Shown here: one piece after another, positions 40,340-60,495 of the stretch
Numbering within the stretch: position 1 is the stretch's first letter
Layout: each line of letters starts with the position of its first letter
Notes under the pieces: generated by a model
Database searches by the model: none
What the model was told of the DNA's origin: nothing
The model's input: the letters and a program-made list of their open reading frames with translations, nothing else
Translations under genes and position numbers: made by a program
Source: an uncultured Arcobacteraceae bacterium
GTDB taxonomy: Bacteria; Campylobacterota; Campylobacteria; Campylobacterales; Arcobacteraceae
Assembly: GCA_964022095.1 (NCBI GenBank)
Contig: CAXHZO010000005.1
Coordinates: 32,001-96,000 of the forward strand
DNA length: 64,000 nt
Reading direction: 5' to 3'

Positions 40340-40361
40340 AATGAAGCAATAGCTTCATTTT
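40338..40361. terminator. bidirectional terminator between convergent genes
   Basis: AAAATGAAGC-AATA-GCTTCATTTT. Confidence 0.65.
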
Positions 40362-42261: not shown

Positions 42262-42293
42262 ATCTTAGTAGAATTTAATCGTATTATTATCGC
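42262..42293 (-). promoter_or_regulatory. GCGAT-box promoter of SDR-leuB
   Basis: Minus strand GCGAT-AATAAT-ACGAT-TAAATTCTAC-TAAGAT. Confidence 0.75.
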
Positions 42294-42300
42294 AGTTTAT

Positions 42301-44357: not shown

Positions 44358-44419
44358 TTTACTGCTCTTATTATAGATTTGAAAAATTATATCATAAATA
44401 AAAATATTCACTAATAACT

Positions 44420-44451
44420 GCGATAATTTTGCGATTTTTTTCCATTAAGAT
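44420..44451 (+). promoter_or_regulatory. GCGAT-box promoter of dmpKLMNOP
   Basis: GCGAT-AATTTT-GCGAT-TTTTTTCCAT-TAAGAT. Confidence 0.8.
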
Positions 44452-44493: not shown

Positions 44494-44742
44494 ATGGCTA
44501 ATGAATCACCGTTTGAAAGAAAATATGTACATATTACTGATGTTAAATCAAACGATTTAGTTGAGTTTGATTTCTCTATAGGTGATCCATGTATGTATGT
44601 TGAACTTGCATTGCCGAAAAAGCAATTTGATGAGTTTTGTAAAAGAAATGCAGTTAAGCATTTAACAAGAGATCAAGAAATTGATGTGGAAAACGACAAG
44701 CATAAGTGGCAGTATGGTGTTGTTGGAACACTAAGTAAATAA
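44494..44742 (+). CDS. dmpK: phenol hydroxylase assembly subunit P0
   Basis: VEFDFSIGDP..YVEL.LP...F.EFC; first gene of the cluster; ATG at 44494. Confidence 0.92.
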   Translation: MANESPFERKYVHITDVKSNDLVEFDFSIGDPCMYVELALPKKQFDEFCKRNAVKHLTRDQEIDVENDKHKWQYGVVGTLSK

Positions 44743-44755
44743 AGGAGTTGAAAAT

Positions 44756-45751
44756 ATGTCTTTAGATATAAAAAGTATAGATATTAAGCCAAAAAGAGAA
44801 ACTTTTGGACACGTGGAAAGAAGAATTGGTGAAGGTAAGATGGCTTCAAGATATGAAGAGGCAACATTTGATATTCAGCCAGTTGCAAACTTTCATTATA
44901 GACCTTATGCAAATCCAGAGTTTGAGTTATATGATCAAAATAAAACTAGCATTAAAATGGAAGACTGGTATAAGTTTTTAGACCCAAGACAATACCACTA
45001 TGCTTCATATGTAACAGCAAGAGCAAAACAACAAGAAGTTGCAGAACAAAACTTTGTTTTTGTAGAAAAAAGAAATATGTTAGATGTAATGCCAGGAGAT
45101 ATAAAACAAGAAATCTTGAATTATGTTTTACCACTTAGACACTATGAGTGGGGAGCAAATATGAATAACCTTCAATTATGTTCAGAAGGATATGGTGCAG
45201 CTATTACAAATGCTTATATGTTCCATGCAGAAGATAGATTAGGTAATGCTCAATATCTTACAAGAATTGGATTATTACTTAGTGAAAATGAACCTGCTGT
45301 TTTAGATAATGCAAAAGATAAATGGTTAAATGATGAAGCATGGCAGCCACTTAGAAAAGCAATGGAAGATAGCTTTGTTTTACAAGATTGGTTTGAGCTT
45401 CATATAGCGCAAAATGTGATTTTCGATGGTTTTATTCATCCTTTAGTATTTGATAAGTACGAGCAAGAACTAAACCAAAGAGGTGGAACTGCTCAAACTA
45501 TGATGACAGAGTTTATCACATCTTGGAATGATGAATCTGCTAGATGGATTGATATGACAGTTAAAGTAGCAGCTTTAGAACGTGATGAAAATAAAGAGTT
45601 ATTAAATCAATGGTGTAAAAAGTATATTGATATTGCAAGTAATGCAGCCCTAGCAATTGCTAAAAATATAGTTAATAATCCAGAAGAAACAGTTAATAAC
45701 ATACAAGAGCAATTAGTGGCAAGATTAAATAAAAATGGTTTAAACCTATAG
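44756..45751 (+). CDS. dmpL: phenol hydroxylase beta subunit P1
   Basis: ASRYEEAT.DIQP..NFHYRP, DPRQY.Y, PLRH..WGANMNN, DWFEL. Confidence 0.94.
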   Translation: MSLDIKSIDIKPKRETFGHVERRIGEGKMASRYEEATFDIQPVANFHYRPYANPEFELYDQNKTSIKMEDWYKFLDPRQYHYASYVTARAKQQEVAEQNFVFVEKRNMLDVMPGDIKQEILNYVLPLRHYEWGANMNNLQLCSEGYGAAITNAYMFHAEDRLGNAQYLTRIGLLLSENEPAVLDNAKDKWLNDEAWQPLRKAMEDSFVLQDWFELHIAQNVIFDGFIHPLVFDKYEQELNQRGGTAQTMMTEFITSWNDESARWIDMTVKVAALERDENKELLNQWCKKYIDIASNAALAIAKNIVNNPEETVNNIQEQLVARLNKNGLNL

Positions 45752-45759
45752 GAGAAAGA

Positions 45760-46029
45760 ATGTCAAAGGTATTTTTAGCACTTCAAGCAGTAGATGAAAC
45801 AAGAGCTATTATTGAAGCTATACAAGAAGATAATGAAAATGTTGAGGTTGAACCACAGCCTGCCATGGTAAAAATCTCAGCTGAGAAAAAAATGGTAATA
45901 AATGCTCAAACTGTATCTGACAAATTAGGTAGAGATTGGGATCCACAAGAGTTACAGTTAGTTTTAATTTCACTAGCTGGAAATGTTGATGAAGATTATG
46001 ACCACTTTACAATTTATTGGGAAAATTAG
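45760..46029 (+). CDS. dmpM: phenol hydroxylase regulatory subunit P2 (MmoB/DmpM)
   Basis: R.IIEAI.EDN, QPAMVKI, LISLAGNVDED. Confidence 0.95.
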   Translation: MSKVFLALQAVDETRAIIEAIQEDNENVEVEPQPAMVKISAEKKMVINAQTVSDKLGRDWDPQELQLVLISLAGNVDEDYDHFTIYWEN

Positions 46030-46040
46030 GAGAAAATATT

Positions 46041-47561
46041 ATGACTATGAGTACACAAAAAAGAAAAAAACGTCTAAATATGAAAGACAAATATAAGTAT
46101 ATGACAAGACTTGGTTGGGAAACTACATATCAAGATATGGATGATGTTTTCCCTGAAGATAAATTTGAGGGTATAAAAATTCATGATTGGGAAGCTTGGG
46201 AAGATCCATTTAGAATGACAATGGATGCTTATTGGAAATACCAAGGTGAAAAAGATAAGAAACTATATGCAATTATTGATGCTTTTGCTCAAAATAATGG
46301 ACAAAAAAATATTTCAGATGCAAGATATGTATCCGCATTAAAACTGTTTTTAACAGGTGTTTCACCTTTAGAATATCAAGCACATAGAGGTTTTGCAAAT
46401 ATTGCAAGAGCTTTTAGAGGTGATGGTCCAAGAGTTGCATGTCAAATGCAAGCTATTGATGAGTTAAGACATGTTCAAACACAAATTCATACTTTAAGCC
46501 ATTATAACAAATACTTTAATGGTTTTTCAGAGTGGGCACATTGGCATGATAATGTATGGTACTTATCTGTTCCTAAATCATTCTTTGATGATGCAAGAGC
46601 AGCAGGTCCTTTTGAGTTTATTATTGCTATTGGATTCTCATTTGAGTATGTATTAACTAATCTATTATTTGTACCGTTTATGAGTGGTGCAGCTTATAAT
46701 GGAGATATGGCAACAGTTACATTTGGATTCTCAGCTCAAAGTGATGAGGCAAGACATATGACTTTAGGTTTACAAGCTATCAAGTTCTTATTAGAGCAAG
46801 ACCCTGCAAATGTTCCTATTGTTCAAAAGTGGATTGATAAGTGGACTTGGAGAGGTTATAAAGTTTTAGGACTAGTATCTGCAATGATGGATTATATGTT
46901 ACCTGATTCACCACAGTCTTGGAAAGAAGCTTGGGAATTATATTTTGAGCAAAATACAGTTGCACTATTTAAAGATTTAGAAAGATATGGAATTACAGTT
47001 CCAGATTGTGCAGCAACAATAAAAGCTGAAAAAGAGCATATTTCTCATCAAGTTTGGATGACACTATATACTCATAATGCAGCAGCACCTTTCCATACGT
47101 GGATTCCAGATGAGAAAAAAATGGATTGGTTAAGCGAAAAGTATCCTGAAACTTTCGATAAATATTACAGACCAGTTTATGAACACTGGAATAAGTTAGA
47201 AAAAGAAGGTACGAGATACTACTCTGAAATGCTTCCTCAGTTATGTCAAACTTGTCAGTTACCAATGTTAGCAACAGAAGTTGAAAAAGGTGAACCAACT
47301 CAAATTGCACATAGACATACTATGTACAATAATGAGAGATTCCATTTCTGTTCAGATCATTGTCAAGATATTTTTGAAAATGAACCTGAAAAGTATATTC
47401 AATCTTGGTTACCAGTTCATCAAATCTTCCAAGGAAACTGTGGAGGTGCTACACTTCCAGAAGTACTTAAATGGTATAAGGTTGAATTTGGACAAGATAA
47501 TCTTGATTATGTAGGTTCTCAGGATCAAAAAATGTGGAAAGAATGGAAGGGAGAAGCATAA
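46041..47561 (+). CDS. dmpN: phenol hydroxylase di-iron alpha subunit P3
   Basis: IDELRH and QSDEARH di-iron motifs, WEDPFR, YHS-like HFCSDHC; SD AGGAG before ATG 46041. Confidence 0.97.
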   Translation: MTMSTQKRKKRLNMKDKYKYMTRLGWETTYQDMDDVFPEDKFEGIKIHDWEAWEDPFRMTMDAYWKYQGEKDKKLYAIIDAFAQNNGQKNISDARYVSALKLFLTGVSPLEYQAHRGFANIARAFRGDGPRVACQMQAIDELRHVQTQIHTLSHYNKYFNGFSEWAHWHDNVWYLSVPKSFFDDARAAGPFEFIIAIGFSFEYVLTNLLFVPFMSGAAYNGDMATVTFGFSAQSDEARHMTLGLQAIKFLLEQDPANVPIVQKWIDKWTWRGYKVLGLVSAMMDYMLPDSPQSWKEAWELYFEQNTVALFKDLERYGITVPDCAATIKAEKEHISHQVWMTLYTHNAAAPFHTWIPDEKKMDWLSEKYPETFDKYYRPVYEHWNKLEKEGTRYYSEMLPQLCQTCQLPMLATEVEKGEPTQIAHRHTMYNNERFHFCSDHCQDIFENEPEKYIQSWLPVHQIFQGNCGGATLPEVLKWYKVEFGQDNLDYVGSQDQKMWKEWKGEA

Positions 47562-47923
47562 TGGCAATTGTAAGTAAAGGTGAATATCCAGTAATTATGA
47601 TGGATAGTGTAGATAAGTTTCATGGTAACCAATTAGTATATGTAGGTTGGGATAAACATAAGTTAATCAATTCAGCGATGGCTTTTCCTTTACCACCACA
47701 AATGCCTTTTAAGGCATTAGTGCATGAAGTAATGCCAGGTTGTTATAAAGATCATCCAGATTTTGAAAAAGTTGTATGGGATGATTCTGTTATTTGGAGA
47801 TTAAACGGTGAAGAGTTTACTCCTGATTTTGAAAAATCTCTTGAAGATAATGGAATTGATCATAAGTCATTAGTTAGATTTGAAACACCAAATCTAACAG
47901 GAATTAACGGAGTAGGAATGTGA
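47561..47923 (+). CDS. dmpO: phenol hydroxylase gamma subunit P4
   Basis: YVGWDKH, PP.MPF, HPDF, PDFEKSL.DNGI.HKS. Confidence 0.94.
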   Translation: MAIVSKGEYPVIMMDSVDKFHGNQLVYVGWDKHKLINSAMAFPLPPQMPFKALVHEVMPGCYKDHPDFEKVVWDDSVIWRLNGEEFTPDFEKSLEDNGIDHKSLVRFETPNLTGINGVGM

Positions 47924-48978
47924 GTTATCAAGTAGAAATAGAACCAACAGGAGATGTAGTAGAAGTTCAAGATGGTCAAACTATTCTTGATGCTGCATTA
48001 AGACAGGGGGTATATATTCCCCATGCGTGCTCTCATGGTTTATGTGGTACTTGTAAGGTAGAGATATTAGAAGGTGAAGTTGACTATGGTGCAGCTTCTC
48101 CTTTTGCCCTTATGGATATGGAAAAAGATGAGGGAAAATGTCTTGCTTGTACTGCTACACCAATGGAAGATTGTGCTATAGAAGCTGATGTTGATGAAGA
48201 TCCAGATGCTAAATCAATACCTGTAAAAGATTTTATGGGAACAGTTGTTGAGGTGAAGGATTTAACACCTAGAATAAAAGGTATTTTTATAGAATTAGAT
48301 GAAGAGATTGAGTTTCAAGCAGGTCAATATGTACAATATCATGTACCAGGATTTGAAGAACCAAGAGCATTTTCTTTATGTAACTCTTCAAATGATAAAA
48401 AAATTGTAGAGTTAAATATTTCTTTAGTTCCAGATGGAGAAGCAACTCCATGGATTCATAAAAATGTAAAAGTTGGTGCAAGAAGAAAAGTATCAGGACC
48501 TTATGGAAGATTTTTTGTAAGAGAATCTGCTCAAAAACCTATGATTTTCTTTGCAGGTGGTTCAGGTCTTTCAAGTCCAAAATCTATGATTTTAGAGCAG
48601 CTTGAAAATGGAAGTAAACAAGAAATAACACTTTTTCATGGTGCTAGAAATGAAGAAGAGTTATATTATGCAGATTTATTTAGAGACTTAGAGCAAAAGC
48701 ATGAGAACTTTACATATGTACCTGTTTTATCCGATGAAGATACTCCTTCTTGGGAAGGGAAAAAAGGTTTTGTAAATGATGCTGCAAAAGAAGTTTTTGA
48801 AAATGACTTCTCTGGAAAAAAAGCATATCTTTGTGGACCTCCACCTATGATAGATGCTTGTATTACAACATTAATGAGAGGAAGACTTTACGAAAAAGAT
48901 ATTTATACTGAAAAGTTCTTCTCAAAAGCTGACTTAAATGCTGAAAATCAGCGTTCCCCTTTATTTAAATCAATTTAA
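47920..48978 (+). CDS. dmpP: phenol hydroxylase reductase P5 (2Fe-2S/FAD/NADH)
   Basis: CSHGLCGTC...LAC, RAFS, AGGSGLS, YLCGPP, RSPLFK. Confidence 0.96.
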   Translation: MSYQVEIEPTGDVVEVQDGQTILDAALRQGVYIPHACSHGLCGTCKVEILEGEVDYGAASPFALMDMEKDEGKCLACTATPMEDCAIEADVDEDPDAKSIPVKDFMGTVVEVKDLTPRIKGIFIELDEEIEFQAGQYVQYHVPGFEEPRAFSLCNSSNDKKIVELNISLVPDGEATPWIHKNVKVGARRKVSGPYGRFFVRESAQKPMIFFAGGSGLSSPKSMILEQLENGSKQEITLFHGARNEEELYYADLFRDLEQKHENFTYVPVLSDEDTPSWEGKKGFVNDAAKEVFENDFSGKKAYLCGPPPMIDACITTLMRGRLYEKDIYTEKFFSKADLNAENQRSPLFKSI

Positions 48979-48999
48979 AATTTTTAAAAAGTAGTTTTT

Positions 49000-49031
49000 G
49001 CGATTTTTCTGCGAAACTATTTCTGTAAAGT
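49000..49031 (+). promoter_or_regulatory. GCGAT-box internal promoter of the meta-cleavage genes
   Basis: GCGAT-TTTTCT-GCGAA-ACTATTTCTG-TAAAGT. Confidence 0.72.
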
Positions 49032-49076
49032 TAAAAAGTCAAAAAGCTATGACTTTTAAATAAAAAAGGGGATGTT

Positions 49077-49397
49077 TTGAAATATGAAATCTTCGTAAAA
49101 GATAAAGACAAAACTAAAACTTGTCTTGAATCTAAACATCTTATGGATGGTTTATATGTATATGATAATCTAGTTCCAAAGGGTTGTCATAATGGTGCCT
49201 GTGGACTTTGTAAGGTTAAAGTTCATAGAGGAGACTACAAAAAATGCAAAATGAATAGAAAACACATCTCATGTGAAGAAGAGAGTGCAGATATTCTTTT
49301 AGCTTGTAAGACATTTCCTAGAAGTGATATGGAAATAGAATTTATACGTAGAGACTTATCTAAAGAAAAATCCCAAGTTTATGTACTTGGTAATTAA
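49077..49397 (+). CDS. dmpQ: XylT/DmpQ-type 2Fe-2S ferredoxin (C23O reactivation)
   Basis: GCHNGACGLCKV, MNRKH, LAC..PRSD; directly before C23O. Confidence 0.88.
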   Translation: MKYEIFVKDKDKTKTCLESKHLMDGLYVYDNLVPKGCHNGACGLCKVKVHRGDYKKCKMNRKHISCEEESADILLACKTFPRSDMEIEFIRRDLSKEKSQVYVLGN

Positions 49398-49414
49398 ATA
49401 ATTAGGAGAAAGTA

Positions 49415-50362
49415 ATGAGCAGTATTATGAGATTAGGTCATGTTGATATTAATGTATTAGATATTAATGAATCAAGAGACTATTATGAAAATATTATGGG
49501 TATGGAAGTTACAAGAGAAGACTCTGATGGAACACTTTATTTAAAGTGCTGGGATGAATGGGATAAATACAGTCTTATTTTAAGACCTAGTGAAGAAGCA
49601 ACATATAATAAGGTTGCGTATAAAGTAGAAAAAGATTCTGATATAGATGATTTTAAAGAAAAAATCGAAAAATATGGAATAAAAACAGAGATTTTAGAAG
49701 CTGGAACTATTCCTGAATGTGGAAGGGTATTAAAGTTTATATCTCCAAGTGAGCATGAATTTAATTTATATGCTGAAAAAACATTTGTAGGTAAAAAAGT
49801 AGGTCACACTAATCCTGCACCTTGGCCAATTGATGGAAAAGGTATCAAAGCTCACTGGATTGATCATATTTTATTAATGACTCAAGGTCCTGAAAAATTA
49901 ATGGAAGCTACTAAGTTCTTTGAAGAAGTATTTGATATGAAATTAGCAGAGCAAGTTTGTGTAGGACCTGAGGGCTCAGTTCAGGCTGCAACATGGTTAA
50001 GTGCTGGAAACACTCCTCATGATTTAGCTTTTGTTGCTGGAGCAGAAACTGGTATGCATCATTTTGCATTTTTCTTAGATGGTTGGAATGATATTTTAAG
50101 ATCAGCAGATGTTATGGCTATGAATAATGTTAAGTTAGATGTTACTCCTCAAAGACATGGTATTACAAGAGGTGAGACTATTTATTTCTTTGACCCATCA
50201 GGACATAGACTTGAGACATTTGCAGGTCTAGGTTATGCAGTTTGTAAAGATATGCCAACAGTTACTTGGACAGAAGATGAACTATGGAGAGGTATTTTCT
50301 ATCATACAGGTCAAGAAAATGGTGCATTTACAACTGCATATACATTATCAGCTTATAAATAA
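49415..50362 (+). CDS. dmpB: catechol 2,3-dioxygenase
   Basis: MRLGHV, YLKCWDEWD, DH, PHDLAF, HHFAF, RHGITRGETIYFFDPSG. Confidence 0.95.
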   Translation: MSSIMRLGHVDINVLDINESRDYYENIMGMEVTREDSDGTLYLKCWDEWDKYSLILRPSEEATYNKVAYKVEKDSDIDDFKEKIEKYGIKTEILEAGTIPECGRVLKFISPSEHEFNLYAEKTFVGKKVGHTNPAPWPIDGKGIKAHWIDHILLMTQGPEKLMEATKFFEEVFDMKLAEQVCVGPEGSVQAATWLSAGNTPHDLAFVAGAETGMHHFAFFLDGWNDILRSADVMAMNNVKLDVTPQRHGITRGETIYFFDPSGHRLETFAGLGYAVCKDMPTVTWTEDELWRGIFYHTGQENGAFTTAYTLSAYK

Positions 50363-50384
50363 AAGAAAAATTTAGGAATTTAAA

Positions 50385-50813
50385 ATGTTGACAAAAACAT
50401 CAAGAGATTTGACAAGTCAAACAGCTTTAAAGCTTTGTGAGTTATCAATTGAAAAGGCTAATGAATTAAATATAAAAATAAATGTAAGTGTTACAGATTC
50501 AAAAGGGATTGAACTTGCATTTATAAGAATGGATGATTCTTTTATTCATTCAAGTCAAATAGCAAAAGATAAGGCTTATACAAGTGCAAGTTTTGGTTTT
50601 AACTCAGATATATGGACTCAAGTTTTCAAAAGTGAACCTCATTTAGAACAAGGTTTTTCTAATAGAGATAGATTAATACCTTTTGGTGGAGGGCTTACTA
50701 TTTTTGAAAATGAAGAAAAAGTTGGAGCCATTGGTGTTTCAGGCGGAACTGAACAAGAAGATATTATTTGCGCGAAGTATGCAATAGAAAGGATAGGATT
50801 AAATAATGAATAA
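50385..50813 (+). CDS. GlcG/HbpS-family haem-binding protein
   Basis: AFIRMD, DKAYTSASFG, GAIGVSGG..QED. Confidence 0.88.
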   Translation: MLTKTSRDLTSQTALKLCELSIEKANELNIKINVSVTDSKGIELAFIRMDDSFIHSSQIAKDKAYTSASFGFNSDIWTQVFKSEPHLEQGFSNRDRLIPFGGGLTIFENEEKVGAIGVSGGTEQEDIICAKYAIERIGLNNE

Positions 50814-52263
50814 AGTACAACACTATATTAACGGACAATTTTTAGATTCATCTTGTGGGGAGTTTTTTGAGAATATCAACCCTATGAATGGTCAAGTATT
50901 ATCTCAAGTAGCCCTAGGACGAGAAGATGAAGTGAATGCAGCAGTTGCAGCAGCTAAAGCAGCTCTTACTGGTGAATGGGGTCAAATGAAATTAAATGAC
51001 AGAATTGCAATGATGTATGAAATTGCTGAGGAAATTGATAGAAGATTTGATGATTTCTTAGAAGCTGAATGTTTAGATACAGGTAAACCTTATTCTATTG
51101 CAAGACATATTGATATCCCAAGAGGTGCTGCAAATTTTAAAGTATTTGCAGACACTATGAAATCTGTTGCAGATGAAGCTTATAGAATGGATACACCTGA
51201 TGGAAAAGTAGCTATGAATTATTCTATGAGAAAACCTAAGGGGGTTATTGGTGTAATTTCTCCATGGAATTTACCATTACTTTTAATGACTTGGAAAGTT
51301 GGTCCTGCAATGGCTTGTGGAAATACAGTAGTTGTGAAACCATCACAAGTTACACCAACAACAACATCTTTACTTGGTGAAGTAATGTCAAAAGTTGGTG
51401 TTCCTTCTGGTGCATATAATGTAGTACAAGGAAAAGGTTCAATTACTGGAAATTTATTAACAGCTCATAAAGATGTAGATGCTTTAACTTTTACAGGTGA
51501 GACAAAAACAGGTGAGATGATTATGAAAGCTTGTTCTCATGGTGTTAGAGATGTATCCTTAGAGCTTGGTGGAAAAAACCCAGCTATTGTTTTTGCTGAT
51601 TGTGATATGGATAAGGCAATTGCTGAGACTACAAGATCGTGTTTTGCTAACTCTGGTCAAGTTTGTTTAGGAACTGAAAGAGTTTATGTTCAAAGAGAAA
51701 TTTTTGATGAATTTGTATCAAAACTAAAAGAGTCAGCTTTAAAACTAAAACTTGGAATTCATAATGATGAATCAGTTGATATGGGGCCAGTAGTTAGTGC
51801 TGCTCATAGAGATAAAGTATTAGAGTTTTATGACATAGCTAAAAAAGAGGGTGCAAATGTAATTTTAGGTGGAGGTGCTCCTAAAATGGAAGGTGATTTA
51901 GCAAATGGATTCTTTGTTGAACCTACTATTTGGACTGGTCTTCCTGAAGATGCAACAGTTGTAAAACAAGAAGTATTTGGACCTTGTTGTCATATTGCAC
52001 CTTTTGATAGTGAAGAAGAAGTTATTAAAATGGCTAATGATACAGATTATGGACTAGCATCTACAATATTTACAGAAAATTTAGATAAGGCTCATAGAGT
52101 AGCTTCACAAATTGACTCAGGAATTGTATGGATTAATTCATGGTTCTTAAGAGATTTAAGAACACCATTTGGTGGAATGAAAGGTTCTGGTATCGGAAGA
52201 GAGGGTGGTCACCACTCATTAGAGTTCTATACTGAACTTAAAAACGTATGTATAAAAATGTAA
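50806..52263 (+). CDS. dmpC: 2-hydroxymuconic semialdehyde dehydrogenase
   Basis: DIPRGAANF, PWNLPLLLMTWK, ELGGKN, GQVCLGTER, WFLRDLRTPFGG. Confidence 0.96.
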   Translation: MNKVQHYINGQFLDSSCGEFFENINPMNGQVLSQVALGREDEVNAAVAAAKAALTGEWGQMKLNDRIAMMYEIAEEIDRRFDDFLEAECLDTGKPYSIARHIDIPRGAANFKVFADTMKSVADEAYRMDTPDGKVAMNYSMRKPKGVIGVISPWNLPLLLMTWKVGPAMACGNTVVVKPSQVTPTTTSLLGEVMSKVGVPSGAYNVVQGKGSITGNLLTAHKDVDALTFTGETKTGEMIMKACSHGVRDVSLELGGKNPAIVFADCDMDKAIAETTRSCFANSGQVCLGTERVYVQREIFDEFVSKLKESALKLKLGIHNDESVDMGPVVSAAHRDKVLEFYDIAKKEGANVILGGGAPKMEGDLANGFFVEPTIWTGLPEDATVVKQEVFGPCCHIAPFDSEEEVIKMANDTDYGLASTIFTENLDKAHRVASQIDSGIVWINSWFLRDLRTPFGGMKGSGIGREGGHHSLEFYTELKNVCIKM

Positions 52264-52272
52264 GGGTGTAAT

Positions 52273-53067
52273 ATGTCAATGACTCAAGAAAAAATTGAAA
52301 AGTATGGAAATGAATTGTATGAGGCTTTAAAAGGAAACTATACAATTGAGCCTATTTCAAATAGAGAACCTGATTCTACAATTGAAGATGCTTATGCTAT
52401 TCAACATCACTTTTTAAAAAGAAGAATGGAAGATGATGGAAGTAAAATTATTGGTAAAAAAATTGGTGTTACATCAAAGGTTGTTATGGACATGTTAGGT
52501 GTTCATCAACCTGATTTTGGTTACCTTTTATCAGATATGATTTACTCTGATGGTGATGTAATAAATGTAACAAGTGGAATGATTCAGCCAAAAGCAGAGG
52601 GTGAAATAGCCTTTGTTTTAAAAGAAGATTTATGTGGACCAGGAGTTACAGCTGCTGATGTTATTAAAGCAACAAAATTTGTAATGCCTTGTTTTGAAAT
52701 AGTTGATTCAAGAATCAAAGATTGGAAAATTAAAATCCAAGATACAGTTGCTGATAACGCTTCATGTGGATATATGGTATTTGGAGGACAAAGTGTATCT
52801 CCTTTAGATGTTGATTTAACAACTTGTGGAATAACTTTAGAGAGAAATGGTGAGTTATTACATACAGGAGCAGGTGCAGCAGCTCTTGGTAGTCCTGTAA
52901 ATGCAGTAGTTTGGCTTGCAAATAAACTTGGAGAGTTTGGTGTATCGCTAAAAGCAGGTGAGGTTATTTTATCAGGGGCTTTATGTGCAATGGTAGATAT
53001 AAAACCAGGTGATAATATGACTGCAAGTATTGGTGGCGTTGGTTCTGCCTCAATCAGATTTGAATAA
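52273..53067 (+). CDS. dmpE: 2-oxopent-4-enoate hydratase
   Basis: GKKIGVTS, QPDFG, PKAEGE, DTVADNAS. Confidence 0.93.
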   Translation: MSMTQEKIEKYGNELYEALKGNYTIEPISNREPDSTIEDAYAIQHHFLKRRMEDDGSKIIGKKIGVTSKVVMDMLGVHQPDFGYLLSDMIYSDGDVINVTSGMIQPKAEGEIAFVLKEDLCGPGVTAADVIKATKFVMPCFEIVDSRIKDWKIKIQDTVADNASCGYMVFGGQSVSPLDVDLTTCGITLERNGELLHTGAGAAALGSPVNAVVWLANKLGEFGVSLKAGEVILSGALCAMVDIKPGDNMTASIGGVGSASIRFE

Positions 53068-53079
53068 AAGGTAAATACA

Positions 53080-53964
53080 ATGGAAAAAATAAATTGTGCA
53101 TTAATTGGGTCTGGAAATATTGGAACAGACCTAATGTATAAACTAAAAAGAAGTGAAATATTAAATCCTTTATGGATGGTTGGTATTGACCCTGAGTCTG
53201 ATGGTTTATTAAGAGCTAAAGAAGATGGTATGAAAACAACAGCCGAAGGTGTTGATGGATTACTTCCTTTTATTAAAGAAGATGGTGTAAAGATTGCATT
53301 TGATGCAACATCAGCTTATGTTCATGGTGAAAATAATAAAAAGTTAGCGGAACTTGGAGTTCAAGTTATTGATTTAACTCCTGCTGCAATAGGACCATTT
53401 TGTGTGCCATCAGTTAATATGGAAGAGCTACTTGCTCAAAATACTCAAAATGTAAATATGGTTACTTGTGGTGGGCAAGCTACTATTCCTATGATTGCCG
53501 CTGTATCAAAAGTTCAGGAAGTTGAATATGCAGAAATTGTAGCAACAGCAGCTTCTAAGTCAGCAGGTCCAGGAACTCGTGCTAATATTGATGAGTTTAC
53601 TGAAACTACAAAACTTGGAATAGAGCAAGTAGGTGGTGCTAAAAAAGGTAAAGCAATTATTATTTTAAATCCTGCAGAACCACCTTTAATGATGAGAGAT
53701 ACAATTCATTGTTTAACAAGTGAAAAACCTGATGAAGAAGCTATTACTAAATCAATCCATGAAATGGTTGAAACTATGCAAGAGTTTATTCCAGGGTATG
53801 TGTTAAAAAATGGACCAGTTTTTGATGGTAATAAAATCTCTATTTGGTTAGAAATTGAAGGTTTGGGGGATTATTTGCCTAAGTATGCAGGTAACCTAGA
53901 CATTATTACAGCAGCAGCAACAAATATTGCAGAACAAATGGCTAAAAAGATTAAAGGAGCATAA
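53080..53964 (+). CDS. dmpF: acylating acetaldehyde dehydrogenase
   Basis: [39 protein letters not shown]. Confidence 0.96.
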
Positions 53965-53965
53965 G

Positions 53966-54994
53966 ATGGATTTACAAGGTAAAAAAATAAAAATTCATGA
54001 TATGTCTTTAAGAGATGGAATGCACTCAATTAGACATCAATTTTCACTTGAAGAGATGACAAATATGTCAACAGCAATGGATAAAGCAGGTGTTCCTTTT
54101 ATTGAAGTTACTCATGGAGATGGACTTGGTGGTTCATCACTTAACTATGGATGGGGAAGACATACTGATGAAGAGTGGTTAGATGCAGTAGTGCCAAATA
54201 TGACACAAGCTAAAATCTCAGCTCTTTTACTTCCAGGAATCGGTATTGTAAAAGATTTAGAAAAAGCTGTTGATCATGGTATTTCTATGGTTAGAGTAGC
54301 AACTCATTGTACGGAAGCTGATTGTTCAGCCCAACATATAAAAGCTGCTAAATCAATGGGACTTGATACAGTTGGATTTTTAATGATGGCTCATATGGTT
54401 GATGAAAAAAGATTAGTTGAGGAAGCTTCTAAAATGGTTTCTTATGGAGCTACTACTATTTATGCAACTGATTCAGCTGGCTACTTACTTCCTGATATGG
54501 TAAGTTCTAGAATTAAAGCATTAAAAGCAGAGTTTGGTGATGAAATTGAACTTGGTTTCCATGGGCACAATAATTTATCAATGGGTGTTGCAAACTCTTT
54601 AGCTGCTATTGAAGCAGGTGCTACACGAATTGATGCTTCACTTGCAGGTTTTGGAGCAGGTTCTGGAAACACTGCAACTGAAGTATTAGTTGCTGTTTGT
54701 AATAGAATGGGTGTTGATACAGGTGTTAATCTTGAAGCTATTGAAGATGCAGCTGAGGATATTGCACTTCCTATTATGGGTAAACCTACAAGAATCTCAA
54801 GGGATTCTATTACTTTAGGTTATGCAGGTGTTTATTCATCATTTTTACTATTTGCTAGACGAGCAGAAGAAAAGTATGGAATAGATGCAAGATCTTTACT
54901 TGTTGAATTAGGTAGAAGAGGAATGATTGGTGGTCAAGAGGATATGATTGATGATTGTGCTATGGAATTAGCTAAACAAAAAGGATTATTATAA
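53966..54994 (+). CDS. dmpG: 4-hydroxy-2-oxovalerate aldolase
   Basis: [45 protein letters not shown] at 53966 after SD AGGAG. Confidence 0.96.
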
Positions 54995-55782
54995 TGGCAT
55001 TAGATAAAGCAACAATAGAAAAACTTGCAAAGCATTGTGAAGATGCAGAATTGCAAGCTTATGAGATTACAAAAATTACTGATGATTACCCAGAAATGAC
55101 ATATGAAGATGCATATGATATTCAATGGACTGCAAGGGCTGCTAAGGAAGCAAGAGGTCATAAAATAGTTGGTATGAAAATGGGGCTTACTTCACAGGCT
55201 AAAATGAAACAAATGGGAGTTCCAAATCCTTGTTATGGATATCTTGCTGATTACTTTGCATATGGTGATGGGGCAGAAATACCATATGACGAATTAATTC
55301 ATCCAAAAGTTGAAGCTGAAATTGCTTTTGTATTAAAAGATGATTTAAGTGGTCCGGGATGTCATATAGGTGATGTATTAGCTGCTACTGATTTTGTAAT
55401 GCCTGCTGTTGAGATTATTGATTCAAGATATAAGGATTTTAAATTTGATTTAAAATCTGTAATTGCTGATAACTCTTCATCTTCTAGATATGTAAGTGGT
55501 GGTATGGCAAAAAAAGCTAATGAAGTTGATTTAAAAACTTTAGGTGTCGTAATGGAAATAAATGGTGAAGTTGTACAACTTGGAGCAGGAGCTGCAGTTC
55601 TTGGTCATCCAGCAACTGCTATTGCAATGCTTGCAAATATGATGAGTGAACGAGGTGAGGTTTTAAAGGCTGGATCTTATATCTTAAGTGGAGCAATTAC
55701 AGCTGCAACTACTGTTAATAAAGGTGATAATGTAACTGTTAAGTTTCAAGATTTAGGAACTTTATCATTTAAATTTGTATAG
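54994..55782 (+). CDS. dmpH: 4-oxalocrotonate decarboxylase
   Basis: KMGLTS.AKMKQMGV, IHPKVEAE, FKFDLKSVIADN. Confidence 0.94.
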   Translation: MALDKATIEKLAKHCEDAELQAYEITKITDDYPEMTYEDAYDIQWTARAAKEARGHKIVGMKMGLTSQAKMKQMGVPNPCYGYLADYFAYGDGAEIPYDELIHPKVEAEIAFVLKDDLSGPGCHIGDVLAATDFVMPAVEIIDSRYKDFKFDLKSVIADNSSSSRYVSGGMAKKANEVDLKTLGVVMEINGEVVQLGAGAAVLGHPATAIAMLANMMSERGEVLKAGSYILSGAITAATTVNKGDNVTVKFQDLGTLSFKFV

Positions 55783-55790
55783 AAAATAAG

Positions 55791-55937
55791 AGCAACTTAT
55801 TGCTTTTAAAAAATGGGATATTTTAAGGACAACTTGTTGTCCCTTTAGGGTTTGCTTCTTTAAAGATGGCTTTGCCATCTTGTTAAAAGAAGTTAAATAT
55901 GTAAGGTCCCTTAAAAAATGGGACATTTTTTAAGGAG
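55791..55937 (+). repeat. intercistronic cluster of hairpins with a duplicated ~24-bp unit
   Basis: TTAAAAAATGGGA(T/C)ATTTT..AAGGA at 55806-55829 and 55911-55936; palindromes AGCAA/TTGCT, GGACAA/TTGTCC, AAGATGGC/GCCATCTT. Confidence 0.75.
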
Positions 55938-55943
55938 TATATT

Positions 55944-56135
55944 ATGCCAATAGCAACTATAAATATAATCGAAGGCAGATCTGATGAGCAAAAAGAGAAG
56001 CTTATAGAAAAAGTAACTCAAGCAATTCACGAAGCTATAGATGCACCAAAACAAAATGTTAGAGTGATTTTAAATGAAATGCCAAAACAACATTTTGGAA
56101 TAGGTGGAGAAAGTGTAAAAAAGATGGGGCGATAA
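55944..56135 (+). CDS. dmpI: 4-oxalocrotonate tautomerase
   Basis: Catalytic Pro1, EGRS.EQK, VRV, HFGIGG. Confidence 0.95.
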   Translation: MPIATINIIEGRSDEQKEKLIEKVTQAIHEAIDAPKQNVRVILNEMPKQHFGIGGESVKKMGR

Positions 56136-56136
56136 A

Positions 56137-57144
56137 GTGTTAAAATTAAGTGTATTAGACCAATCTCCAATTCATGATGGAAAAGAAGCAAAGCAAGGCT
56201 TATTTGATACTATTGAATTAGCAAAATCTTGTGAAGACTTAGGTTATTATAGATATTTATTAGCAGAACATCATGATACACCTGGCTATGCTTCTTGTGC
56301 CCCTGAGATTATGGTTAGTGCAGTTGCTTCAAATGCTTCAAAAATTAGAGTTGGTAGTGGTGGAGTTATGCTAAATCACTATAGCTCTTTTAAAGTAGCA
56401 GAGACTTTTAATACACTTAATGCTTTATACGATAATAGGATTGATTTAGGTGTAGGAAGAGCTAGTGGCGGAAGTTTTTTAGCTACTAGAGCTTTGCATT
56501 CAAATCAAAGTGATTATTCAAAAAAAGTTTATGAAACAATAAATTATTTAGATAAAACAGTTCCTTTAAATTCTTCATTTAGTGGATTGACTTTATCCCC
56601 AGTTCAAGAAAATAGTACTCCTGTGTATTTACTAGGTTCTAGTAATTCAAGTTCTTCTTTAGCAGGAGTTTTAGGTGCAGGTTTTATCTTAGCACTATTT
56701 ATAGGAACACATGAAAGAAATTCTTCAATAATACAAGAGTATAAAAAAACATTTAATAAAAGTCATAATTTTAAAAAGCCAAAAGCTAGTATTGCAGTTG
56801 CTTGTATTGTTGCAAAGGATAAAGAAGAAGCAAGATATATAGCAAGTACACATACTTATTGGAAGTTACAAGCTTTCAGACAGCCTACAAGGGATGATTT
56901 ACAAAGCCCACAAGCAGTTCAAGAACTAATAAAAGATTTAAGCCTTGAAGATAGACAATATTATGAAGAAACAATGAATACCATGATATTGGGTAATGCA
57001 AAAGAGTGTAAAGAAGAAATAGAGAAATTAGCTTTAGAATATGAAGTTGATGAGGTAATTATTGTGAATGTGACTTATTCTTTTGAGCATAGAAAAAGAT
57101 CATATGAACTTTTAGCAAAAGAGTTTGATTTAAATAAGGAGTAA
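56137..57144 (+). CDS. luciferase-like (LLM) flavin-dependent oxidoreductase
   Basis: LSVLDQSP, AEHH, RVGSGGVML.HYS..KVAE, RIDLGVGRA. Confidence 0.9.
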   Translation: MLKLSVLDQSPIHDGKEAKQGLFDTIELAKSCEDLGYYRYLLAEHHDTPGYASCAPEIMVSAVASNASKIRVGSGGVMLNHYSSFKVAETFNTLNALYDNRIDLGVGRASGGSFLATRALHSNQSDYSKKVYETINYLDKTVPLNSSFSGLTLSPVQENSTPVYLLGSSNSSSSLAGVLGAGFILALFIGTHERNSSIIQEYKKTFNKSHNFKKPKASIAVACIVAKDKEEARYIASTHTYWKLQAFRQPTRDDLQSPQAVQELIKDLSLEDRQYYEETMNTMILGNAKECKEEIEKLALEYEVDEVIIVNVTYSFEHRKRSYELLAKEFDLNKE

Positions 57145-57146
57145 AA

Positions 57147-57965
57147 ATGTCAAATCCAGAAATAGCAAATAGTATTAATACGGGTAATTATAATACTAAC
57201 TATCATGATTTAGGTGAGGGTGAAGTAGTTTTATTTATCCATGGTTCAGGACCAGGGGTTTCAGCCTTTGCAAACTGGAGATTAACAATGCCCCAGCTTG
57301 CAAAAAACTTTAGAGTAATAGCTCCTGATATGGTAGGCTTTGGTTATAGTGATAGACCTAATGATATTACTTATAGTATGGATGTATGGGTAGAGCAAGC
57401 TATTAATTTAATGGATGCTTTAAAAATAGAAGAATTTAATATCGTTGGTAACTCTTTTGGTGGAGGCTTGGCTTTATGTTTAGCTATAAAATATCCAAAT
57501 AGAGTGAATAAAATGGTATTAATGGGTGCAATGGGTGTTGATTTTGAAATAACAGCTGGACTTGATCAAGCATGGGGATATACTCCAAGTATAGAAAACA
57601 TGAAAGCTTTATTAGATACATTTGCATATAGTAGAGAACTAGTAACAGATGATTTAGCAAAAATGAGATATGAAGCTAGTATTAGACCTGGATTTCAAGA
57701 ATCATTTAGTTCAATGTTTCCCGAACCAAGACAAAATAGTGTAAAATCAATGGCAAGTGATGAAAAAGAAATAGCTTCTATTGATAAAGATGTTTTAATT
57801 ATCCATGGTAGAGATGATAAGGTGATTCCTTTTGAAAACTCAATTAGATTGCATAATCTAATAGAAAAGTCACAATTACATGGTTTTGGACAATGTGGAC
57901 ATTGGTCTCAAATAGAACATAAGGATAGATTTAATAAACTACTTGAAGATTTCTTTTTAGAATAG
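57147..57965 (+). CDS. dmpD: 2-hydroxymuconic semialdehyde hydrolase
   Basis: HGSGPGV.A.ANW, GNSFGG, HGRDD, CGHW.QIEH. Confidence 0.93.
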   Translation: MSNPEIANSINTGNYNTNYHDLGEGEVVLFIHGSGPGVSAFANWRLTMPQLAKNFRVIAPDMVGFGYSDRPNDITYSMDVWVEQAINLMDALKIEEFNIVGNSFGGGLALCLAIKYPNRVNKMVLMGAMGVDFEITAGLDQAWGYTPSIENMKALLDTFAYSRELVTDDLAKMRYEASIRPGFQESFSSMFPEPRQNSVKSMASDEKEIASIDKDVLIIHGRDDKVIPFENSIRLHNLIEKSQLHGFGQCGHWSQIEHKDRFNKLLEDFFLE

Positions 57966-57973
57966 GAGTAGAT

Positions 57974-58912
57974 ATGAACTTTTTAATTTTAGGTACAGGT
58001 GGAATAGGCGCATTTTACGGAGCAAGATTATTAAGTTCATCAAATAAAGTTACATTTGTCGCAAGGAGTTTGCACTTAGAAGCTATAAGAAAAAATGGCT
58101 TACAAGTGCAACATCCTGATTTTTCCTTCTCTCAAAAAGTAGATGTATCACAACTACAAGATATAGACTTCACTTCTTTAAATATTGATGTAATAATTCT
58201 AACTACAAAATCAAATACAACTAAAATAATAGCAAAAGAGCTTTCTTTTAAACTAGATACATTAAAAGACAAACCATATATTTTATCTTTACAAAATGGT
58301 GTTGAGAATGAGAAATTTTTATGTGAATATTTTCAAAAAGATAAAATAATAGGTGGACTAACTAGAAAAATAGGTGCTCATATTATAAAACCCTCTTTTA
58401 TAGAAGCCACAGGTAAAGTAGAAACTCTAATAGGTGCAATTTCCCAAACTAAAGAAAACACAGCTTTTTTAAAGAAGTTAAATAAAAGTATAAATGAAGC
58501 TGGTATTTTATGTGAAGTTGTTGATGATATAAATAAAGAGCTTTGGAAAAAACTTATTATAAACAATGGAGTAAATGCTATTTGTGCTTTACTCAAAATT
58601 AAAACTGGTGTTTTAATGAATAATGAAAAACTTTCATCTTTAGTTTATAGTCTAATGAAAGAGACTCAAAGTGCTGCAAAAGCTTGTAGTATAGAAATTA
58701 CTAACAATGAACTAAGTCAAATGTATGAGTTAATTAAAAATTTTGACTCAATTAAACCCTCAATGCTAGTTGATAGAGAGTTTAAAAGAGAATTAGAAAT
58801 AGATGAAATCTGTAATGTAGTAATAAACTATAATAAAATGCAAAATATAGATAGCCCTTATACTAAATCAATCTCTTATTTACTTGATTTTGTGTATAAA
58901 AATGAAAAATAA
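57974..58912 (+). CDS. ketopantoate reductase (PanE/ApbA)-family protein, copy 2
   Basis: GTGGIG, LQNGV, WKKLIINNGVNAICALL, KPSMLVD, ELEID. Confidence 0.88.
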   Translation: MNFLILGTGGIGAFYGARLLSSSNKVTFVARSLHLEAIRKNGLQVQHPDFSFSQKVDVSQLQDIDFTSLNIDVIILTTKSNTTKIIAKELSFKLDTLKDKPYILSLQNGVENEKFLCEYFQKDKIIGGLTRKIGAHIIKPSFIEATGKVETLIGAISQTKENTAFLKKLNKSINEAGILCEVVDDINKELWKKLIINNGVNAICALLKIKTGVLMNNEKLSSLVYSLMKETQSAAKACSIEITNNELSQMYELIKNFDSIKPSMLVDREFKRELEIDEICNVVINYNKMQNIDSPYTKSISYLLDFVYKNEK

Positions 58913-58920
58913 AACTATTT

Positions 58921-58952
58921 GCGATTAATCTGCGATAAGTTTTTATTATTAT
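58921..58952 (+). promoter_or_regulatory. GCGAT-box promoter upstream of an ORF-free structured segment
   Basis: GCGAT-TAATCT-GCGAT-AAGTTTTTAT-TATTAT. Confidence 0.72.
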
Positions 58953-58958
58953 TACCTT

Positions 58959-59146
58959 TGAAATAGGTGCAAGTGATATATTTATTTTTGAAGTTGTAGT
59001 ACCTATTATGTTTTTTGCTTTTAAACTTATAAATGCTTTCTTTTTATCACTTACAACTTCAAAGCGACTTATATGAAGTTTCTCCTTTCATAAAAAAATG
59101 ATTTAGACATAAATACGGCATTTTATATGCCGTATGCCCTTATTTT
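58959..59146 (+). ncRNA. candidate sRNA (or long structured leader) with anti-SD loop
   Basis: Own motif promoter, no credible ORF, several inverted repeats, loop GTTTCTCCT, 3' hairpin ATACGGCAT/ATGCCGTAT; ends approximate. Confidence 0.5.
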
Positions 59147-59160
59147 AACTTATAAAAAGT

Positions 59161-59192
59161 GCGATAATTTTGCGATTTAATTTAATTAAAAT
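59161..59192 (+). promoter_or_regulatory. GCGAT-box promoter of porin gene
   Basis: GCGAT-AATTTT-GCGAT-TTAATTTAAT-TAAAAT; first 16 bp identical to the dmpK site. Confidence 0.8.
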
Positions 59193-60463: not shown

Positions 60464-60495
60464 AAGGGTTCAAGTATATACTTGAACCCTTTTTT
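60464..60495 (+). terminator. rho-independent terminator after porin
   Basis: AAGGGTTCAAGTATATACTTGAACCCTT perfect palindrome followed by T run. Confidence 0.85.

Follow-up and report, generated by a model that had tools for sequence, protein, structure and literature searches.

The 64,000-nucleotide stretch of DNA analyzed here (the window; positions 32,001 to 96,000 of contig CAXHZO010000005.1, assembly GCA_964022095.1, from an uncultured Arcobacteraceae bacterium) carries genes for an aerobic phenol hydroxylase and a meta-cleavage pathway. We consider it likely that these genes form the core of a chromosomal catabolic island of ~21 kb through which the host uses O2 to oxidize phenol and, probably, alkylphenols such as cresols, that the island is under two-component control, and that it entered the family long ago and was exchanged recently. 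The phenol/alkylphenol meta-cleavage island is real and intact and, judged from its genes, very probably functional; we infer the enzyme activities, the substrate range, the protein that binds the promoter box and the signal perceived by the kinase. The island (about 39.7-60.5 kb of the window) holds a broken copy of pheA, a second leuB (leuB2), a short-chain dehydrogenase (SDR) gene, a response regulator, a sensor kinase, the dmp genes, a second panE (panE2) and a porin. A preliminary description of this DNA, made without database searches, had listed the pathway genes; all those it named are there, but it overlooked an HbpS-like and an MsnO8-type gene, and the unit (~39.7-60.5 kb) is larger than it supposed.

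Enzyme families were assigned by bit scores against Pfam (curated cut-offs) and NCBIfam (equivalog cut-offs). The plus strand from 44494 to 57965 is an unbroken run of intact open reading frames that includes every gene of the preliminary description, and the scores bear out its statement that the six hydroxylase subunits, the ferredoxin, catechol 2,3-dioxygenase (C23O) and the lower-pathway genes are intact. The hydroxylase genes follow the order K-L-M-N-O-P, for an assembly protein, the beta subunit, an effector, the alpha subunit, the gamma subunit and a Fer2-FAD-NAD reductase, all six scoring above their Pfam cut-offs. DmpN matches the alpha subunit of the phenol hydroxylase (PHN) of Pseudomonas sp. 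OX1 (PDB 2INN) with 800 bits over residues 16-512 and is ~70% identical to it in the alignment, where the cysteine-rich C-terminal region is conserved. Its two ExxH iron motifs (DELRH and SDEARH) and the intervening glutamate positions are identical to those of PHN, given the numbering of the diiron ligands that we presume for this alignment. C23O matches PDB 5ZNH with 401 bits, its His/His/Glu region being conserved, and its Pfam content (two Glyoxalase domains and Diox-like_N) is that of the two-domain vicinal-oxygen-chelate type. Both lower branches are present as had been claimed, one formed by dmpC, dmpH and dmpI and the other by a meta-cleavage-product hydrolase gene. The latter had been named dmpD; the gene is intact, but the protein falls below all NCBIfam equivalog cut-offs (the best is HsaD, 198 bits vs. 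400) and its nearest solved relative is CumD (395 bits), with which its catalytic motifs align. By these scores the hydrolase is a member of the meta-cleavage-product hydrolase group, and may or may not be an orthologue of DmpD/XylF. The dmp cluster is single-copy in the genome. The genome also has two COX1-family oxidase genes, and therefore aerobic respiration is available to the host.

The newest aspect of the cluster appears to be its control. Loci were compared over 80 stretches of DNA, 22 from Campylobacterota and 58 others, which are the best 80 of 407 stretches matching DmpN; among genomes, G000 is that of the window, G001 belongs to the same genus and lacks the island, and G024 belongs to another genus and bears it. 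Genes for a sensor kinase and a response regulator are transcribed divergently from dmpK, and the pair adjoins dmpK in 19 of the 22 Campylobacterota loci and in none of the 58 others. Database homologues of the kinase are 431 aa long. Kinase orthologues (at least 50% identity) occur in 36/36 DmpN-positive genomes of the family and in 0/148 DmpN-negative ones, three of which have just paralogues of 34-38% identity. Among the best 120 matches listed for the kinase (at least 63% identity), the named ones are all Arcobacter-group records except one metagenome-assembled genome (MAG), and none has a functional name. In the gammaproteobacterial sister clade of the hydroxylase, by contrast, an activator of XylR_N-V4R-sigma54 architecture lies upstream of dmpK in all five loci examined. 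The XylR_N domain was absent from three island-bearing Arcobacteraceae genomes (G000, G024 and G188) and was found in both gammaproteobacterial control genomes. From these data we infer that a divergent PAS-HisKA_2 kinase, together with an OmpR-type regulator, took the place of the DmpR seen in the sister clade. A DmpR-type system with a sigma-54 promoter was rejected for the window, as no such promoter was evident by eye in the 136-bp spacer between the kinase gene and dmpK and the genome has no XylR-type activator. LOV or flavin sensing by the kinase was likewise set aside: its nearest solved relatives are LOV histidine kinases (E = 2e-9 only), yet the cysteine motif by which LOV domains bind flavin was not seen in its PAS domain.

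A shared candidate promoter element was found ahead of the island's operons. The box is a tandem repeat, TGCGAw-N5-nGCGAw, followed at a fixed distance by TAnnnT. It lies upstream of dmpK in the window and in 22/22 Campylobacterota loci, but not in a Sphingobacterium locus, and of the 12 Campylobacterota loci that extend to C23O, 10 have a site homologous to the one at 48999. The pattern TGCGA-N6-NGCGA occurs four times in the 2.57-Mb genome (~1.8 expected from base composition), and all four copies are on the plus strand, intergenic and within the island, at 44419 (dmpK), 48999 (ferredoxin-C23O), and 58920 and 59160 (porin). The island makes up 0.8% of the genome, and the chance of three further random sites falling inside it is ~5e-7. 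A stricter version of the box pattern gave two matches in the window and none in 100 shuffles. TGCGA-N6-NGCGA is missing from the island-less G001 and occurs four times in G024, each time within the island; among the copies in G188, G117 and G049, those with an AT-rich spacer cluster at the dmp region, the remainder being identical copies of one GC-rich repeat. When 45 box sites were aligned (4 in the window and 41 in the 22 loci), TAnnnT stood exactly at positions 28-33 from the box start in 41, while each of the other 32 offsets accounted for no more than 8/45. A generic promoter and terminator scan was uninformative in DNA this AT-rich (92 sigma-70-like sites vs. 101 +/- 9 in shuffles), and only the porin terminator was kept from it. 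Promoters activated by OmpR/PhoB-type regulators typically have, in place of the -35 element, a pair of 11-bp direct repeats at a set distance from the -10, and the island encodes no DNA-binding protein other than the adjacent response regulator. Because of this architecture and the lack of any other candidate within the island, we propose that the regulator binds the box and activates five promoters, with the Opr-type porin in the regulon as an uptake channel.

Taken together, the genes suggest the following scheme. By homology, DmpKLMNOP would be a six-component diiron hydroxylase that yields catechol or methylcatechols. C23O would then open the ring, the small ferredoxin keeping it active, and the ring-fission product would pass either through the dehydrogenase, tautomerase and decarboxylase branch (dmpC, I and H) or through the CumD-like hydrolase, both branches leading via dmpE, G and F to pyruvate and acetyl-CoA. 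The classical sigma-54 activator DmpR would not be used; the membrane-anchored PAS-HisKA_2 kinase would phosphorylate the OmpR-type regulator, which would bind the tandem 11-bp repeat in the -35 region, 5 nt upstream of the TAnnnT -10. Five promoters appear to be arranged in this way, those of the hydroxylase operon, the meta operon and SDR-leuB2, and two before the Opr-type porin, which probably admits the substrate. Transcription is predicted to start about 6-8 nt beyond the -10 hexamers, which end at 44451, 49031, 58952 and 59192 on the plus strand and at 42262 on the minus strand. The module would have entered the Arcobacteraceae once, long ago, from a marine gammaproteobacterial lineage, with its regulator swapped. 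It would now pass between genera of the family, likely by homologous recombination of the flanks, and would have reached this genome recently in that way.

The evidence for recent exchange comes from the comparison of the window with its relatives. In G001 the match to window position ~39735 is directly joined to the match to ~60525, so that, compared with this closest relative, the window has gained the intervening 20.8 kb by insertion. The island is found at the same site in four genomes of another genus, one of which consists of a single contig. Compared with G024, 10 flanking genes are 71-85% identical in nucleotide sequence (54-71% at third positions), whereas identity reaches 94-99.6% (85-99% at third positions) in the 23 genes that run from leuB2 to the porin. 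The right edge is sharp, with the porin at 97.6% nucleotide identity to G024 and the next gene, EamA, at 71.7%. The left edge is intermediate, panE1 being 93.9% identical to its G024 counterpart vs. 78.6% to that of G001 (88% vs. 66% at third positions). The flanks are, if anything, nearer to G001 than to G024. Since purifying selection cannot give synonymous near-identity beside saturated flanks, the comparison indicates that a tract of ~38.7-60.5 kb was recently exchanged between the lineages of the window and of G024. Domain, tRNA and repeat scans found no integrase, transposase, tRNA or flanking direct repeats within 38.6-61.0 kb, in agreement with the earlier remark that integrase and transposase genes are missing, which also applies to the island ends; Rfam returned no family match in the same interval at E <= 0.1. 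An integrase-mobilized genomic island was ruled out on these grounds and by the identical site in two genera. Homologous recombination through the conserved flanks is therefore the likely route of exchange.

Some copies of the island are mosaic. In the loci L007 and L023, from close relatives, the ferredoxin gene is missing and C23O is 57-59% identical while its neighbors are 87-98% identical, so the ring-cleavage gene has been replaced locally while the rest of the island stayed conserved. Like mosaicism is seen against G024, where third positions of dmpC and dmpE are 85% identical vs. 94-99% in the neighboring dmp genes.

For the older history of the cluster, a phylogeny of DmpN, which the preliminary description had called for, was built as a quick maximum-likelihood tree (LG+G4) of 81 sequences, the window's and those of the 80 stretches. 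A single clade (SH-aLRT 96) unites the window sequence with all 22 Campylobacterota rows and one row from Sphingobacterium; it is sister to a group of marine Gammaproteobacteria (SH-aLRT 99 for the joint node), and the DmpN sequences of Pseudomonas, Acinetobacter and Betaproteobacteria lie further out. GC content at third codon positions (GC3) in the dmp genes (0.13-0.22) is close to that of the flanks (0.10-0.17) and below that of the nearest dmpN genes of Gammaproteobacteria (0.33-0.78), in line with the host-like codon style noted at the outset. The single Campylobacterota clade and the host-like GC3 fit a single old entry of the cluster into the Arcobacteraceae. The clade contains two DmpN subclades, 83-99% and 69-72% identical to the window protein, and since lower-pathway and regulator proteins show much the same similarity in either subclade, the pattern suggests that the hydroxylase module was at some point exchanged separately. 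The Sphingobacterium (Bacteroidota) locus, L017, has a hydroxylase of 77% identity nested in the Campylobacterota clade, joined to catechol 1,2-dioxygenase and muconate cycloisomerase of the ortho pathway and without the box; it looks like a transfer out of the Arcobacteraceae with a different downstream route. A MAG record labelled Sulfurospirillum clusters with an Arcobacter MAG in the same comparison.

Contrary to what had been implied, the island is not rare in its group. A survey proposed in the preliminary description found DmpN (E <= 1e-50) in 36/184 Arcobacteraceae species genomes, spread over 9 of 22 genera, and in 0/377 genomes of other Campylobacterota families in an even sample of the phylum (n=401), whose sole match was the window's own genome. 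Among isolates, the cluster or its kinase is present in public records of Arcobacter sp. YIC-310 and YIC-464 and Poseidonibacter ostreae SJOD-M-6, and kinase matches are known from Halarcobacter mediterraneus, Aliarcobacter cibarius and Arcobacter sp. LA11. At least nine studies beyond possible source samples yielded DNA near-identical to the window (at least half of the sampled words), in metagenomes from marine, seawater, salt-marsh and aquaculture settings and in two organism-labelled runs. In one seawater transcriptome, contigs 90-95% identical to the window cover dmpN, O/P, C, E, F, G, H and the porin, which is only a weak hint that the cluster of a relative is expressed, as these are contigs and DNA carry-over is possible; gaps in this coverage have no significance.

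Part of the pathway has been studied before. In the paper on Arcobacter sp. CAB (Carlstrom et al. 2013, mBio, PMC3656443), catechol is oxidized with formation of a yellow 375-nm product, the genes are induced and the strain grows on catechol, with O2 supplied by chlorite dismutation. The seven locus tags given there (5480, 5500, 5510, 5530, 5540, 5550 and 5570) fit exactly the ten-gene order of the window, C23O, HbpS, dmpC, E, F, G, H, I, LLM (luciferase-like oxidoreductase) and hydrolase. The paper is silent on a phenol hydroxylase, phenol as a substrate, a regulator and distribution in the family. In the literature searched, with subscription journals lying outside the search, neither a phenol hydroxylase of Arcobacter, Arcobacteraceae or Campylobacterota nor a two-component regulator of a multicomponent phenol hydroxylase was reported. 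Two family-wide comparative-genomics papers on Arcobacteraceae contained no occurrence of aromatic, phenol or catechol, and in the two papers with both 'Arcobacter' and 'phenol hydroxylase' the terms were unconnected. In PMC6249378, dmp genes are attributed to Marinobacter rather than Arcobacter; in PMC10432169 and PMC7284936, Arcobacter figures as sensitive to oil or as living on intermediates. Therefore, the lower pathway in an Arcobacter is already known, and the hydroxylase, the breadth and the regulation appear to be undescribed in the literature searched. The preliminary description had named an already described commonness in the family as one outcome that would refute it; this applies in part, since the cluster is indeed common there, but its breadth is not in print as far as we searched. 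With the catechol part active and induced in strain CAB, the pathway itself is less exceptional than first thought. What is new, as far as the sequences tell, is its control and its spread: a lineage-specific two-component system with a private box, and movement between genera without mobility genes.

The best-known relative of this pathway is the dmp operon of Pseudomonas sp. CF600, dmpKLMNOPQBCDEFGHI with its sigma-54 activator DmpR. The window encodes the same enzyme set (six-component hydroxylase, ferredoxin, C23O, and hydrolytic and 4-oxalocrotonate branches) but in a genome without any DmpR/XylR-type activator, where control is apparently exerted by a two-component system and sigma-70-type promoters. 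Its hydrolase is CumD-like and stands at the operon end, HbpS-like and LLM genes are added, a porin, an SDR gene and a leuB copy are linked, and the cluster is chromosomal in a host of 28% GC. The hydroxylase is like PHN of OX1 (PDB 2INN/2INP/3U52) in its ExxH motifs and Cys-rich C-terminus, and differs from it in host phylum, in regulation and in the placement of DmpN in a separate Campylobacterota clade. The cluster of Arcobacter sp. CAB is of the same family and matches the ten-gene order, as far as its published locus tags go, and catechol activity is known for that strain (PMC3656443).

With respect to control, the window regulator has the hallmarks of the OmpR/PhoB family, namely a receiver and a Trans_reg_C domain, a partner kinase, and repeat boxes with a fixed -10 at 41/45 sites to which binding is predicted. 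As in the pho box of PhoB/OmpR-type promoters, tandem 11-bp repeats replace the -35 at a fixed distance from the -10 and the regulator is of Trans_reg_C type; unlike there, the half-site is TGCGAw, the kinase is of HisKA_2/HWE rather than HisKA type, and the linker of the regulator, at ~50 residues, is unusually long. The TodS/TodT, TmoS/TmoT and StyS/StyR systems pair large, soluble, double-module HisKA kinases with NarL/FixJ-type regulators. The window system would likewise place a kinase with a cytoplasmic PAS domain over an aromatic oxygenase pathway without a one-component activator. However, its kinase has 431 aa, is membrane-anchored and carries a single PAS and one HisKA_2-HATPase module, and its output is OmpR-type; one PAS, one kinase module and this output rule out membership in the TodS/TodT type.

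Several points weigh against our interpretation. Evidence for activity, transcript starts and DNA binding in this organism is gene-based throughout, and the transcriptome contigs, at 90-95% identity, stem from a relative and from a library that may hold DNA. The study of strain CAB tested catechol, and the word phenol stands solely in its reference list (PMC3656443). DmpE clears its cut-off by less than 1 bit, and the hydrolase reaches no equivalog cut-off. Three of the 22 Campylobacterota loci (L016, L018 and L040) have the box and no kinase or regulator within 8-10 kb; therefore, either the regulator can act from afar or another protein binds the box. Many DmpN-positive genomes have a second, paralogous kinase nearby (59-65% identity), which leaves more than one way to pair kinase and operon, and the co-occurrence counts of the kinase come from related genomes and are hence non-independent. 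Finally, the tree is a quick one over the best 80 of 407 stretches, and lineages that would break the clade may be unsampled.

Some of these points bear on what the enzymes do and what binds the box. The genes might be functional with phenol not as the main substrate, serving other monoaromatics (cresols, alkylphenols, or benzene and toluene by successive hydroxylation) or catechol and methylcatechols released by other organisms. The hydrolase is nearest to CumD, which acts on alkyl-substituted ring-fission products, retention of both branches suits substituted catechols, catechol is the only substrate whose use is known to have been demonstrated in the family, and L040 and G005 have a second diiron monooxygenase by the cluster. 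However, the score of 800 bits and ~70% identity tie DmpN to a characterized phenol hydroxylase, and all six Dmp-type components including DmpK are present; we think this alternative unlikely, and it overlaps with a phenol/alkylphenol island under two-component control rather than excluding it. It is also conceivable that the box is genuine but bound by another regulator, and that the adjacent kinase and regulator have another task such as control of SDR-leuB2 only. The three loci with a box and no two-component genes nearby would agree with that, as would the common second kinase, and the link between box and regulator is drawn from sequence. Yet no other DNA-binding protein is encoded in the island, tandem 11-bp repeats at -35 are typical of OmpR/PhoB-type regulation, presence of the kinase (at least 50% identity) matches that of DmpN in 184/184 genomes of the family, and the box is confined to the island genome-wide. 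We judge a different box-binding protein improbable.

Other alternatives concern how the genes came to be where they are. According to the preliminary description, the cluster is an old, ameliorated acquisition, and on that account it would have been acquired once in ancient times, then inherited vertically, and would be an unusual trait for the group. Host-like GC3, the single Campylobacterota DmpN clade and the absence of mobility genes all agree with such a history, and for the family as a whole one old entry is retained. For this genome, however, it is contradicted by the empty site in G001 of the same genus and by island third positions of 85-99% vs. 54-71% in the flanks against G024 of another genus, which point to recent exchange within the family. 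The presence of the cluster in 36/184 species genomes and the catechol meta-cleavage published for an Arcobacter in 2013 also speak against an unusual trait, and purely vertical descent appears highly improbable. Likewise, a proteobacterial catabolic fragment might have been falsely joined to an Arcobacteraceae contig during assembly or binning, and the dmp stretch does have the highest total GC of 1090 13.5-kb windows of the genome (0.332 vs. a mean of 0.278). However, its GC3 matches the host, and gammaproteobacterial DmpN relatives are at most 76% identical. The closest named relatives of DmpN, which have the same neighboring genes, are Arcobacter, Poseidonibacter and Halarcobacter records, which settles the host as Arcobacteraceae. 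The window flanks are syntenic with G001 and with the four genomes of the other genus that have the island at the identical site, including the single-contig one, and a metagenome run independent of this assembly has contigs that span gene boundaries and junction regions with 100% identity. The chance of an artefact is practically nil, as the same-site copies, the third-position comparison and the independent contigs already refute it, and the contig chimerism that the preliminary description had wished to see checked is thereby excluded.

Arcobacteraceae bloom in coastal water, sediments, aquaculture and wastewater, and are usually modelled as consumers of organic acids and sulfur compounds. 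An island present in ~20% of species would add an aerobic phenol/cresol sink to these habitats. If confirmed, the compact, sigma-54-independent set of kinase, regulator and box would be a new route for sensing phenolics and, in AT-rich hosts, a candidate part for biosensors. The island would also be a clean case of a pathway that was rewired to another type of regulator after crossing phyla and then spread without mobility genes. We would go further only as speculation, and would sooner doubt the following than rely on it: the island may represent a new class of aromatic switch, in which a small membrane PAS-HisKA_2 kinase senses phenolics directly and an OmpR-type regulator reads a private 22-bp box plus -10. 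Its self-contained regulon (hydroxylase, ring cleavage, porin, SDR-leuB and possibly a small RNA) would work wherever the island lands and be carried by recombination from one genus to the next, making hidden aerobic degraders of phenolics out of a fifth of this marine family.

Table 1. Genes and predicted signals of the island and its left border (positions in the window; bit scores are followed by the cut-off where one is given).
Feature	Position	Strand	Evidence or remark
panE1, panE/ApbA-like reductase	38778-39728	+	Pfam ApbA + ApbA_C; chromosomal gene within the exchanged tract
Second prephenate dehydratase gene, broken in two	39809-40030 and 40076-40339	+	Pfam PDT on first piece only; left end of insert
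leuB2, second 3-isopropylmalate dehydrogenase	40360-41427	-	TIGR00169, 500 bits vs. 353
Short-chain dehydrogenase (SDR), divergent module	41439-42233	-	Pfam adh_short
Predicted SDR-leuB2 promoter: variant box TGCGATAATAA-TACGATTAAAT, TAAGAT at standard distance	42262-42294	-	One mismatch, in second half-site
Response regulator: receiver, long linker, OmpR/PhoB-type winged helix	42301-43059	-	Response_reg 83 bits, Trans_reg_C 37.4 bits
Sensor histidine kinase: two predicted transmembrane helices, one PAS, HisKA_2, HATPase	43062-44357	-	Pfam; likely start ATG at 44357
Predicted promoter of dmpKLMNOP: box TGCGATAATTT-TGCGATTTTTT at 44419-44440, -10 TAAGAT at 44446-44451	44419-44451	+	Motif search
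dmpK	44494-44742	+	Phenol_hyd_sub, 66.9 bits vs. 25
dmpL	44756-45751	+	Phenol_Hydrox, 207.8 bits
dmpM	45760-46029	+	MmoB_DmpM, 99.5 bits
dmpN	46017-47561	+	Phenol_Hydrox, 244.3 bits, + YHS
dmpO	47534-47923	+	Phenol_monoox, 81.6 bits
dmpP	47920-48978	+	Fer2 + FAD_binding_6 + NAD_binding_1
Predicted meta-cleavage operon promoter (ferredoxin-C23O): box TGCGATTTTTC-TGCGAAACTAT, -10 TAAAGT	48999-49031	+	Motif search
Ferredoxin, XylT/DmpQ-like [2Fe-2S]	49077-49397	+	Fer2; four-cysteine pattern Cys-X4-Cys-X2-Cys...Cys
C23O	49415-50362	+	TIGR03211, 391.1 bits vs. 320.2
HbpS-like/DUF336 gene	50385-50813	+	Directly 3' of C23O
dmpC	within 50385-57965	+	TIGR03216, 798 bits vs. 693
dmpE	within 50385-57965	+	TIGR03220, 409.5 bits vs. 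408.8
dmpF	within 50385-57965	+	TIGR03215, 462 bits vs. 282
dmpG	within 50385-57965	+	TIGR03217, 512 bits vs. 286
dmpH	within 50385-57965	+	TIGR03218, 446 bits vs. 351
dmpI, 63-residue tautomerase	55944-56135	+	Tautomerase, 78 bits vs. 22; N-terminus MPIA (Met-Pro)
MsnO8-family luciferase-like (LLM) oxidoreductase	56137-57144	+	Between dmpI and hydrolase
Meta-cleavage-product hydrolase, CumD-like	57147-57965	+	Abhydrolase_1
panE2, second panE/ApbA-like reductase	57974-58912	+	40% identical to panE1
Predicted leader/small-RNA or distal porin promoter: box TGCGATTAATC-TGCGATAAGTT, -10 TATTAT	58920-58952	+	Motif search
Predicted porin promoter: box TGCGATAATTT-TGCGATTTAAT, -10 TAAAAT	59160-59192	+	Motif search; repeat family D3
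Opr-family outer-membrane porin, predicted uptake channel	59268-60434	+	Pfam OprD and NF033923, below cut-off
Terminator hairpin 3' of porin, right island end	60464-60491	+	Terminator scan

The second kinase found in many DmpN-positive genomes lies 6-20 kb from the first in G117, G020, G130, G049, G135, G115 and others. Further boxes stand beside it in G117, at 645350 and 646461, which suggests that in such genomes a duplicated sensor may control a neighboring catabolic unit. Some relatives also contain a second diiron monooxygenase beside or near the phenol cluster: in L040 (2895-6363, minus strand) its alpha and beta subunits have 496 and 333 aa, and G005 (contig C113) has a paralogue 27% identical to DmpN. 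These are possibly benzene/toluene monooxygenases and would widen the substrate range of the family. The MsnO8-type gene was present in 6/22 Campylobacterota loci, many of which stop short of its position, and in 0/58 other loci.

Two further sites resemble parts of the regulon. A transcript starting from the box at 58920 would span 58958-59150 on the plus strand (~190 nt) and end at a hairpin at 59113-59135, just before the porin promoter. This predicted transcript folds better than shuffles (-40 kcal/mol, z = -3.9) and has no Rfam match; it could serve as a leader or small RNA, co-regulated with the island genes, or else the box may merely be a distal porin promoter. At the left island edge, just after panE1, a box-like repeat with 10-nt rather than 11-nt spacing lies at 39737-39755 on the minus strand; L023 has an 11-nt-spaced box at the same place, without a -10 hexamer. 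This repeat may be a decayed or non-promoter binding site.

The left part of the island contains second copies of chromosomal genes. A native paralogue of leuB2 is on another contig (C7; 82% aa identity), and a native prephenate dehydratase lies at ~31284-32360 of the window, where the paralogous match spans ~31551-31769. The two fragments of the second prephenate dehydratase gene are 46 nt apart in the window vs. ~390 nt in L007 and L023, which suggests that the gene is intact in those relatives and has suffered an internal deletion in this genome. A leuB gene is linked to the module in 7/22 Campylobacterota loci and the SDR gene is present in 17/22, both traveling with the regulator module behind the variant box. 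Relatives of the SDR (~50% identity) are also found near phenol hydroxylases in three betaproteobacterial loci (L021, L024 and L032). Unrelated to the island, seven clustered tRNA genes (Pro, His, Arg, Leu, Gly, Arg and Gly) at 6007-6719 on the plus strand explain a GC peak near 5-7 kb of the window.

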